The notes below the pieces were generated by a model, which was not told the origin of the DNA, did not search any database, and worked only from the letters and a program-made list of their open reading frames with translations. The translations under genes and the position numbers were made by a program. DNA of 64,000 nt from Escherichia coli. Its GTDB lineage: Bacteria > Pseudomonadota > Gammaproteobacteria > Enterobacterales > Enterobacteriaceae. Numbering within the stretch: position 1 is the first letter of the stretch; each line of letters starts with the position of its first letter. This document shows, in pieces, positions 61,373-63,060 of this stretch. The stretch lies in NCBI RefSeq assembly GCF_017348835.2, contig NZ_CP071375.1; one strand, 5' to 3'.

Positions 61373-61601
61373 AATTGGAAATAAAATTGTTTCCAATAGA
61401 CATTTTTAACATGTTGTTTTTCTAAGTGTTATAAGGTAGGTATAAAATGGGATGGAGCCTCTGCTTCTGGCATGTGTCGGTCAGAATGACTCATGATGTG
61501 GTCTGCTATTATTGACATCCTCACTGCCCTAAAGGATGGGGATTTCGGTAATGCTGCCAACTTACTGATTTAGTGTATGATGGTGATTTTAAGGTGCTTG
61601 C

Positions 61602-61877
61602 GTGGCTTCCATTTCCATCAGATGTCCTTCCTGCTCCGCTACTGAAGGCGTGGTGCGTAACGGCAAAAGCACTGCCGGACATCAGCGCTATCTCTGCTCT
61701 CCTTGCCGTAAAACATGGCAACTACAGTTCACTTACACCGCCTCTCAGCCCGGTAAGCACCAGAAAATCATTGATATGGCCATGAATGGCGTCGGATGTC
61801 GCGCCAGTGCACGCATTATGGGCGTTGGCCTCAACACGGTTTTACGTCACTTAAAAAAATCAGGCCGCAGTCGGTAA
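61602..61877 (+). CDS. insA: IS1 InsA (91 aa)
   Basis: [43 protein letters not shown]…, a variant of IS1 InsA. Confidence 0.85.
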
Positions 61878-62299
61878 CCTCGCGCATACAACCGGGCAGT
61901 GATGTGATTGTCTGCGCTGAAATGGACGAACAGTGGGGCTACGTCGGTGCTAAATCACGTCAGCGCTGGCTGTTTTACGCGTATGACAGGATACGGAGGA
62001 CGGTTGTGGCGCACGTCTTCGGTGAACGCACTCTGGCCACACTGGAGCGTCTTCTGAGCCTGCTGTCGGCCTTTGAGGTCGTGGTATAGATGACGGATGG
62101 CTGGCCGCTGTATGAATCACGCCTGAAGGGAAAGCTGCACGTTATCAGCAAGCGTTACACTCAGCGCATTGAGCGACATAATCTGAATCTGAGACAACAT
62201 CTGGCAAGGCTGGGACGGAAGTTACTGTCGTTCTCAAAATCGGTGGAGTTGCATGACAAGGTCATCGGGCATTATCTGAACATAAAACACTATCAGTAA
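61796..62299 (+). pseudogene. insB: IS1 insB with an in-frame amber codon (TAG at 62087-62089, where recalled IS1 has TGG Trp)
   Basis: The same frame reads …LLSAFEVVV(stop)[23 protein letters not shown]…; a single nonsense codon splits insB into 97- and 69-codon halves. Confidence 0.7.
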
Positions 62300-63060
62300 G
62301 TTGGAGTCATTACCTCCTCCCGAACTCAAAGCTATCATACAGATAATTACTGGTTAACCCTATATAGGGCATTTTAAAGTGTTGTGATCTTACCCAGCAA
62401 TAGTGGACACGCGGCTAAGTGAGTAAACTCTCAGTCAGAGGTGATTCACAAGACAAAACAGTTTCAACCAGTAAAAAAACGTAAACACCATTCGCATGAA
62501 TTTCGTAGTTAAGATCTGAAGCTTGCAGAATGCATCGGTGTTACTGCCGGAGTCCGTGAACTTAGTCTGCATGAATCACCACAGCTTTACATCTGTCGCA
62601 GTAAACAGCAAAATCAGCAAACTTACTTAATTATATCGAGTGCGATTACAATCGCTGGCGATGGTACAGTTGGTGTGGCGGTCTCAGTCCGGAACAATTT
62701 GAAAATCAGAATCTCACTTAAAACGGCATCCATTTTACAAAAGATGGCCGTCTGTGTATTTGTAATGAATACCTTCTACATGTTTAGAGTGCATAATCCA
62801 CGACAAGGCGATATCCTAAAAATTAGCTAGCAGGCAACTTTGATGGCATAGATAATGTTTTTAGTAAAAAAGAGTTGACTGAATATAATACAGCCTCTTC
62901 CTACATAAGAAGGAATGTGCTCACAAAAAAAAACCATTAGTCTGCTTCCTGTTCTTACAATAATCAGTATTATGTATTTTATTTATATAGCAAAATATGC
63001 TTGTTACACCTGTCATAATTAGGCATGGTAAAATTATTGACTGAACCCTGGGGGAGAAAG

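Follow-up and report, generated by a model that had tools for sequence, protein, structure and literature searches.

Introduction

IS1F is the 'type IV' IS1 of Escherichia coli K-12, an element 90.5% identical to consensus IS1 that lies beside fec operons (PMC12428005, PMC12903888). The K-12 sequence carries the GenBank accession X52538 (PMC8867978), and the element is present as a single copy in MG1655, W3110, DH10B, BL21(DE3) and REL606 (PMC6462304). Insertion of IS1 is accompanied by target duplications of 8 or 9 bp, and no IS1 insertions were obtained with a K-12 strain in which only IS1B, IS1C, IS1D and IS1F remained (PMC12428005). Of 48 insertions sequenced after induction of InsAB' in trans, 44% were of IS1F, a share credited by the authors to its better-matched ends (PMC12903888). 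IS1F insertions have also been found in a few repository plasmids (PMC8867978). The amber codon, the intact insA, the linkage to fec and the mobilisation of IS1F in trans are already documented.

In the present study an IS1 copy at the edge of a fec region was analysed in a window of 64,000 nucleotides from an E. coli genome (GCF_017348835.2, contig NZ_CP071375.1). A preliminary description of this window had reported an in-frame stop in insB and flanks that do not match, and had taken the copy to mark a recombination or deletion junction. Judged from sequence comparisons, the element is very probably an ordinary copy of the long-known defective IS1F next to fec, carried by about half of complete E. 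coli genomes including K-12. With the same high confidence, its stop codon and absent target duplication appear to be inherited features and to reflect no new events in this genome. The additions made here are small: a population-level comparison of the junctions, a plasmid-borne intact copy set between identical junctions, and A7 as an allele of the frameshift motif.

Results

Identity and ends of the element

The element occupies positions 61547-62314 on the + strand, and both these coordinates and the full length of 768 bp given in the preliminary description hold. It was assigned by its near-identity to the element annotated in MG1655 as 'insertion sequence:IS1F', to which it is equal at 767 of 768 positions, with one mismatch. 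Ungapped alignment with IS1A of K-12 gave 74 mismatches, or 90.4% identity. Near-identity to K-12 IS1F together with about 90.5% identity to consensus IS1 is what distinguishes the IS1F isoform, and both are found here. The same is true of the features of the IS1 family, namely a length of about 768 bp and imperfect terminal inverted repeats of about 23 bp beginning GGTRATG.

The left repeat IRL, GGTAATGCTGCCAACTTACTGAT, lies at 61547-61569 (+ strand) and was recovered in a repeat pair of 23 nt at 87%. The right repeat IRR, at 62292-62314 (+ strand), was located by repeat search and by comparison with IRL. The two repeats, both intact, match at 20 of 23 positions, compared to 18 of 23 in IS1A. 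Copies 100% identical to the window IS1F are present in many complete E. coli genomes, where PGAP labels them 'IS1-like element IS1F family transposase; programmed frameshift; internal stop'.

insA and the frameshift motif

insA is an intact ORF of 91 amino acids at 61602-61877 (+ strand), with a GTG start; its MG1655 equivalent is insA7 (b4294). The product is a DNA-binding protein and repressor with a zinc ribbon and an HTH, recognised in Pfam as Zn_ribbon_InsA (PF03811, 3.4e-19) and HTH_Tnp_IS1 (PF12759, 3.4e-28). The zinc ribbon and HTH expected of an IS1 insA are therefore both found in the ORF. InsA had been called a variant, and it does differ from IS1A InsA by 8 residue substitutions. 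The idea that InsA is kept under purifying selection as a 'domesticated repressor' was considered and found no support, since 6 of the 9 variable insA positions in the sampled alleles, which are small numbers, change the residue.

The frame layout of IS1 is conserved, with insB' in the -1 frame joined to insA at the A-run. Alignment with IS1A and K-12 IS1F shows seven consecutive A where the programmed -1 frameshift takes place, TTAAAAAAATC, at 61853-61859 (+ strand). This A7 motif in place of the canonical A6C had been overlooked in the preliminary description. It results from a C-to-A change at 61859 (IS position 313), which also converts InsA N86 to K. A7 is a minority allele among the approximately 2850 records with TAG, because the exact 61-mer carrying it occurs in 360 E. 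coli records. Any frameshift product of the A7 allele ends at the amber codon anyway.

The amber codon in insB

The 5' part of insB/insB', in the -1 frame relative to insA, extends over 61796-62089 (+ strand) and ends at the amber; it was delimited by ORF and alignment, and PGAP annotates 'programmed frameshift; internal stop' on identical copies. As had been reported, TAG at 62087-62089 (+ strand) stands in place of an IS1 Trp codon. Alignment with IS1A, which has TGG, identifies it as Trp98 of InsB and codon 163 of InsAB'. This fixed change leaves 162 of the 232 residues of the InsAB' frameshift transposase, which breaks off midway through the DDE catalytic domain. With Trp put in at this codon, DDE_Tnp_IS1 matches residues 102-232 of the fusion (2e-73), and TAG falls at position 62 of the 131 in this profile. 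The stop removes the C-terminal half of the catalytic domain, because the 69-codon ORF that begins with ATG directly after TAG (3' part of insB, 62090-62299, + strand) matches Pfam DDE_Tnp_IS1 positions 63-131. The part lost from InsAB' presumably includes the aspartate of 'TDGW', three codons downstream of TAG, and the glutamate of 'IERH', which we take to be the second Asp and the Glu of the IS1 D-D-E triad. The DDE_Tnp_IS1 domain, held in a single open frame in a functional IS1, is thus interrupted here, and the gene is a pseudogene, as annotated in MG1655.

One explanation is that TAG is a sequencing or assembly error and that the element is really an intact IS1. Intact TGG versions of nearly the same element do exist, one with only 4 differences and another at the same locus on a plasmid (see below). 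The exact 61-mer centred on TAG, however, occurs in 2850 independent E. coli records, compared with 4232 records for the same 61-mer with TGG, and the curated MG1655 reference also has TAG, with insB7 annotated as a pseudogene. An error at this codon can be regarded as practically negligible. A sense codon at this position in reference IS1 variants, with read support, had been named in the preliminary description as evidence against its reading; the reference IS1F of MG1655 carries the stop.

Three intact relatives with TGG were identified. The annotation of the copy in the chromosome of strain NCCP 13907 (WP_223718721.1) is that of an intact CDS with a frameshift; this copy shows TGG, A6C and 4 differences from the window element. 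The IncF plasmid p89_MLI108-3 (WP_244437904.1) has TGG and 9 differences, and its element is placed between both junctions of the window. The IncFIB plasmid pMRSN346647_113.1 (WP_226453243.1) has TGG and 13 differences, with the right flank of the window. TGG can be taken as the ancestral state, because IS1A and these nearly identical open-frame elements of IS1F type have it, and the amber is a single G-to-A transition.

TAG was present in all seven sampled copies other than that of the window (L002, L003, L005, L007, L012, L014 and L017), which represent three allele backgrounds. Defined by positions 156 and 210, TAG occurs on three backgrounds and TGG on two among the sampled alleles. The presence of both codons on several backgrounds implies some gene conversion between IS1F copies. 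From the alleles, an amber found on several backgrounds would require either gene conversion or recurrent mutation, and not a simple single origin.

Location of IS1F and its junctions

IS1F lies at the outer edge of a leuX-associated island. The tRNA-Leu(CAA) gene is at 48313-48397, and the fecE side holds an ORF for an IS30-family transposase (50747-51898) together with a fragment of the IS3 family (52029-52628). fecI, which heads fecIR-fecABCDE, is at 60789-61310 on the - strand (ORF and annotation of L002), and the small gene ykiE lies between it and IS1F at 61447-61515 on the + strand (annotation of L002). The element is hence immediately upstream of fecI and divergent from it, the location characteristic of IS1F, and its left junction is identical to that of K-12.

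To the right of IRR there is a spacer of 70 bp starting with TCCTCCCGA (62315-62384), followed by an IS3-family relic at 62385-62721 (+ strand). The left end of this relic, TGATCTTACCCAGC, begins a stretch about 89% identical to IS3, and its right end, placed according to the PGAP fragments of a genome with the identical stretch, is approximate. The annotation of L007 has the CDS of an IS3-like element IS3-family transposase here. A YmgB/AriR-family gene (63025-63318) lies to the right of the relic, with further transposase fragments beyond it. Ecol_AZ147, used as a source of local annotation only, is identical to the window over 61200-62700, but its leuX island is a different one and it differs after about 63503.

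The 9 bp on either side of IS1F had been reported not to match. The left 9-mer GGGGATTTC (61538-61546) and the right 9-mer TCCTCCCGA agree at 0 of 9 positions, so the target duplication typical of IS1 is lacking at this locus. A degenerate duplication, which the preliminary description had named as evidence against its own reading, was looked for: none, shifted or degenerate, was found within 15 bp of each IS1F end, the best comparison giving 5 of 10 positions.

Both junctions are widespread. The left junction, fecI-ykiE-GGGGATTTC joined to IS1F, was found in 2596 of 5426 complete genomes, a collection weighted toward clinical and laboratory strains, and left and window-type right junctions together in 2012 of the 5426. 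The configuration of the window is therefore that of the majority, 2012 of the 2596 genomes with the fec-IS1F left junction. The K-12-type right junction, IS1F joined to GACCATGTT and leading to yjhU, was found in 357 of the 5426. GGGGATTTC is invariant in every fec-linked copy examined, and the window-type right junction is also present on IncFIB and IncF plasmids. On p89_MLI108-3 both window junctions surround the TGG IS1F, with the right flank identical for 50 bp.

As had been suggested in the preliminary description, the right-hand junction was compared with other strains, and the flanks of K-12 and 30COLEC differ from the window exactly at the end of the IS. In strain S51, which is without IS1F at this place, a GRP-family sugar-transporter gene preceded by mtnK, mtnA and an aldolase gene is intact, and the K-12 right flank corresponds to the sequence from 58 bp before its stop codon onward. 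As the gene is intact in S51, the right end of K-12 IS1F is a breakpoint that cuts it. In 30COLEC the fec-IS1F block, with TAG and the same left junction, resides in a pheV tRNA island, and the flank on its right is of a third kind, TGGTTTTTG, adjoining a phosphoethanolamine-transferase fragment. The fec-side junction is thus constant in the leuX island, the pheV island and IncF plasmids, and the sequence to the right is not the same in all lineages, the change coming exactly at the last IS base. The right end of IS1F, where this change falls, is therefore a breakpoint of rearrangement bordering the fec region.

The sole genome in which the left flank is not then followed by IS1F, strain 9 (H152), was considered as a candidate empty site. 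It was rejected, because bases 1-5/7 of IS1F are still there and run straight into the IS3-like relic at its first base, the product of a secondary deletion. None of the genomes and plasmids compared had GGGGATTTC repeated as a matching 9-bp duplication on the other side of IS1F, and the original insertion event was not observed.

Origin of the junction and the missing target duplication

The data suggest that IS1F is the terminal element of a mobile fec module and that the absent duplication is an old inherited scar. The right end of IS1F would be a repeated breakpoint, used in intramolecular transposition (adjacent deletion), in cointegrate formation and resolution, or in homologous exchange between IS1F copies. 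After any of these three, the flanks of the IS would no longer carry matching duplications. A constant end combined with an end that varies at the last IS base is the signature that would be expected of IS-end-mediated events, by any of the three. The presence of both junctions on a plasmid with TGG IS1F means that the junction is older than the amber, or at any rate unconnected with it. The amber would have arisen later in a chromosomal lineage and been inherited by K-12, the strain of the window and many others.

The preliminary description had read the junction as the mark of a recombination or deletion at the fec edge. The change of the right flank at the last IS base agrees with a rearrangement junction; a local event is not supported, as the same arrangement is shared by 2012 genomes and an IncF plasmid. 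A recent, lineage-specific deletion or recombination in this genome would fit the lack of a duplication, the variation of right flanks between strains and the graveyard of IS fragments on the right side. It is very unlikely in view of the identity of both junctions in the 2012 complete genomes, their occurrence around an intact IS1F on an IncF plasmid, and the presence of the right junction alone on IncFIB plasmids as well.

Simple insertion of IS1F at this site, with the 9-bp duplication decayed later by point mutation, has nothing in its favour beyond the default expectation for an IS. No position of nine matches and there is no shifted match, in flanks that otherwise hardly vary, with 99-100% identity among the genomes sampled; moreover, the right flanks of other strains are unrelated sequences and not diverged copies. 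The probability left to this course of events is minimal.

A variant of the terminal-element explanation deserves more weight, though we consider it rather doubtful. According to it, fec once lay between two copies of IS1F, in a composite transposon or an unresolved cointegrate with the duplication beyond both copies, and the partner copy by fecE has since been lost. fec and IS1F do move as a block among the leuX island, the pheV island and plasmids with a constant inner junction, and the IS30 and IS3-family elements on the fecE side could have replaced the partner. Against this, there is no IS1 remnant elsewhere in the window: a second IS1 or IS1 fragment sought across it as a composite partner gave none, with chance matches of 14-36 nt only. 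Nor do the 9-mers TCCTCCCGA and GGGGATTTC recur next to any IS end in the window. With no IS1 on the other side of fec in the window, an origin as composite transposon or cointegrate therefore leaves no trace here.

The comparison shows that the fec operon travels as a unit, each time terminated by IS1F, between islands linked to tRNA genes and IncF plasmids, and that the outer end of IS1F is the recurrent breakpoint.

Mobility of the amber element

The preliminary description held that the amber should abolish InsAB' unless suppressed. As regards the transposase this is borne out, since the protein is truncated within DDE_Tnp_IS1 and K-12 IS1F is immobile on its own (PMC12428005). The element itself is not immobilised. 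In strain WCHEC020031 a copy 100% identical to that of the window, with TAG and A7, disrupts ybhM and is bordered by a perfect 9-bp duplication, GTCGCCATA. In strain AR434 a 100% identical amber copy is inserted within a different IS1, with an 8-bp duplication, GTTCTGCG. Both of these sampled transposed amber copies have A7. The WCHEC020031 chromosome also holds a copy identified by the exact TGG 61-mer of IS1F type. Because identical amber copies with 9-bp and 8-bp duplications occur elsewhere and trans-mobilisation has been shown (PMC12903888), the amber disables the own transposase of IS1F without immobilising the element.

The natural transposed copies are consistent with an element that is immobile alone and mobilisable by InsAB' in trans, as published for K-12 (PMC12428005, PMC12903888). 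As these copies fit the published experiments, the most fitting description of IS1F is that of a non-autonomous IS1 in which InsA is still encoded. It could make the InsA repressor and yet would move only with InsAB' from other IS1 copies in the cell.

Alternatively, the amber copy might still be autonomous, by read-through or suppression of UAG, or by re-initiation at the adjacent AUG (62090) to give two polypeptides that reassemble. The ATG directly after TAG, with GAGG 11 nt upstream, would suit re-initiation, and autonomy would also account for the transposition of identical amber copies with normal duplications and for the IS1F insertions in a few repository plasmids (PMC8867978). We consider autonomy extremely unlikely, as the split falls inside the catalytic domain, no IS1 insertions arose with only IS1B, IS1C, IS1D and IS1F (PMC12428005), and mobility was seen only with InsAB' in trans (PMC12903888). 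In addition, the genomes with transposed amber copies hold IS1 at many other places, and the ybhM genome also carries the TGG 61-mer.

A more speculative proposal, which we judge improbable, is that the A7 allele might alter frameshifting and over-produce a truncated InsA-B'(1-162) DNA-binding protein, the amber IS1F being a successful non-autonomous derivative that exploits intact IS1 transposase via its better-matched ends (20/23). If this were true, truncated InsA-B'(1-162) could be an extra inhibitor of IS1 transposition. Irrespective of this, helped in trans, an IS dead for its transposase can spread in nature, and caution is needed before IS copies marked as pseudogenes are assumed to be inert.

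Comparison with related elements

The closest described system is IS1F of K-12 (MG1655 4518472-4519239), in which insA7 (b4294) is annotated as the IS1 repressor and insB7 (b4576) as a pseudogene with the same TAG. The K-12 and window elements have in common the 768 bp, TAG in insB, the ykiE/fecI left junction and the lack of a target duplication. The sole base difference is in the frameshift motif, which is A6C in K-12 and A7 (InsA N86K) in the window. On the right, K-12 IS1F adjoins the last 58 bp of the GRP-family sugar-transporter gene by yjhU, whereas the window has the 70-bp spacer and the IS3-like relic.

The intact IS1F-type elements of NCCP 13907, p89_MLI108-3 and pMRSN346647_113.1 are 98.3-99.5% identical to the window IS1F. 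They differ from it in having TGG and A6C, with the annotated transposase frame open, and in being located on plasmids or at another chromosomal site. The pMRSN346647_113.1 copy shares the right flank of the window and the neighbouring YmgB/AriR-family gene, but its left flank is evgA.

Consensus IS1, represented by IS1A and IS1E of K-12, resembles the window IS1F in length, ends, the order of insA followed by a -1 frameshift into insB', and Pfam domains. Consensus IS1 generates target duplications of 8/9 bp. IS1A, unlike the window IS1F, moves autonomously and has TGG where the amber stands.

The miniIS1 cassette of PMC12903888 and MITE-like IS derivatives are examples of non-autonomous elements moved in trans. 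Such elements have functional ends without a functional transposase and receive the enzyme from a related element, and in this they are like IS1F. IS1F differs from them in that it is full length, encodes InsA, and has been disabled by one point mutation and not by an internal deletion.

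Frameshift motif of the fec-linked IS1F

The window copy of IS1F differs from that of K-12 at a single place, where the canonical IS1 frameshift motif A6C is replaced by A7 (61853-61859). The change, C to A at 61859, also converts Asn86 of InsA to Lys (N86K). An exact 61-mer carrying the A7 allele is present in 360 E. coli records, and A7 is common to both of the sampled transposed amber copies (L001 and L011).

IS1F variants on plasmids

The IncF plasmid p89_MLI108-3 (NZ_CP117004.1; sampled locus L013, 3759-4526), a conjugative IncFIA/FIB/FIC plasmid, carries IS1F with TGG and A6C in the order fecIR-fecA...-ykiE-IS1F. 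The element is flanked by both junctions found in the window. This is the scar of the window, occupied here by an intact IS1F. Five further plasmids (database matches H77, H78 and H80-H82) gave the same match span. An IS1F-type copy, annotated as intact, is located on the IncFIB plasmid pMRSN346647_113.1 (L006, 4001-4768). In this copy, G to A at IS position 78 changes Cys8 of InsA, a residue in the zinc ribbon's first CxxC, to Tyr, and DNA binding might be weakened by the substitution.

Rearrangements of the fec-IS1F block in other chromosomes

In E. coli strain 9 (NZ_CP048304.1; L008, 5140-5170), deletion has reduced the fec-linked IS1F to its initial 5-7 bases (GGTAA/TG), which run directly into base 1 of the IS3-like relic (TGATCTTACC...). 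The loss looks like an adjacent deletion generated from the IS3 end. In E. coli 30COLEC (NZ_CP070930.1; L012), the fec-IS1F block is found in a pheV tRNA-Phe island and not at leuX. The amber codon is present there, the left junction is the same as in the window, and the block adjoins an integrase and a phosphoethanolamine-transferase fragment. The right flank of K-12 IS1F (L017, 3241 onward) starts within a GRP-family sugar-transporter gene, 58 bp from its end, and was compared with E. coli S51 (L016, 5054-6058). S51 has the transporter gene intact, with mtnK, mtnA and a fuculose-phosphate aldolase gene ahead of it; these genes are lost from K-12 at the IS1F end.

Surroundings of IS1F in the window

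The IS3-family left-end relic (62385-62721), about 89% identical to IS3, starts 70 bp from IS1F. Beyond it lies a 97-aa ORF (63025-63318), named by PGAP, from an identical sequence elsewhere, as a YmgB/AriR-family biofilm regulator; no NCBIfam match was found for this ORF.

Elsewhere, a tandem array (40948-41339) comprises 4.1 copies of a 96-bp unit with 95% matches and has REP/BIME-like palindromic content. Judging by synteny with Ecol_AZ147, the array seems to occupy the intergenic region between pepA and holC.

In the region 48313-53700, the boundary of the island is marked by tRNA-Leu(CAA). Between this tRNA gene and fecE are an IS30-family transposase ORF of 383 aa (50747-51898) and an IS3-family transposase fragment (52029-52628). 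At the same tRNA-Leu(CAA), Ecol_AZ147 carries a P4-like, Hachiman-carrying island, whereas the island in the window is much shorter.
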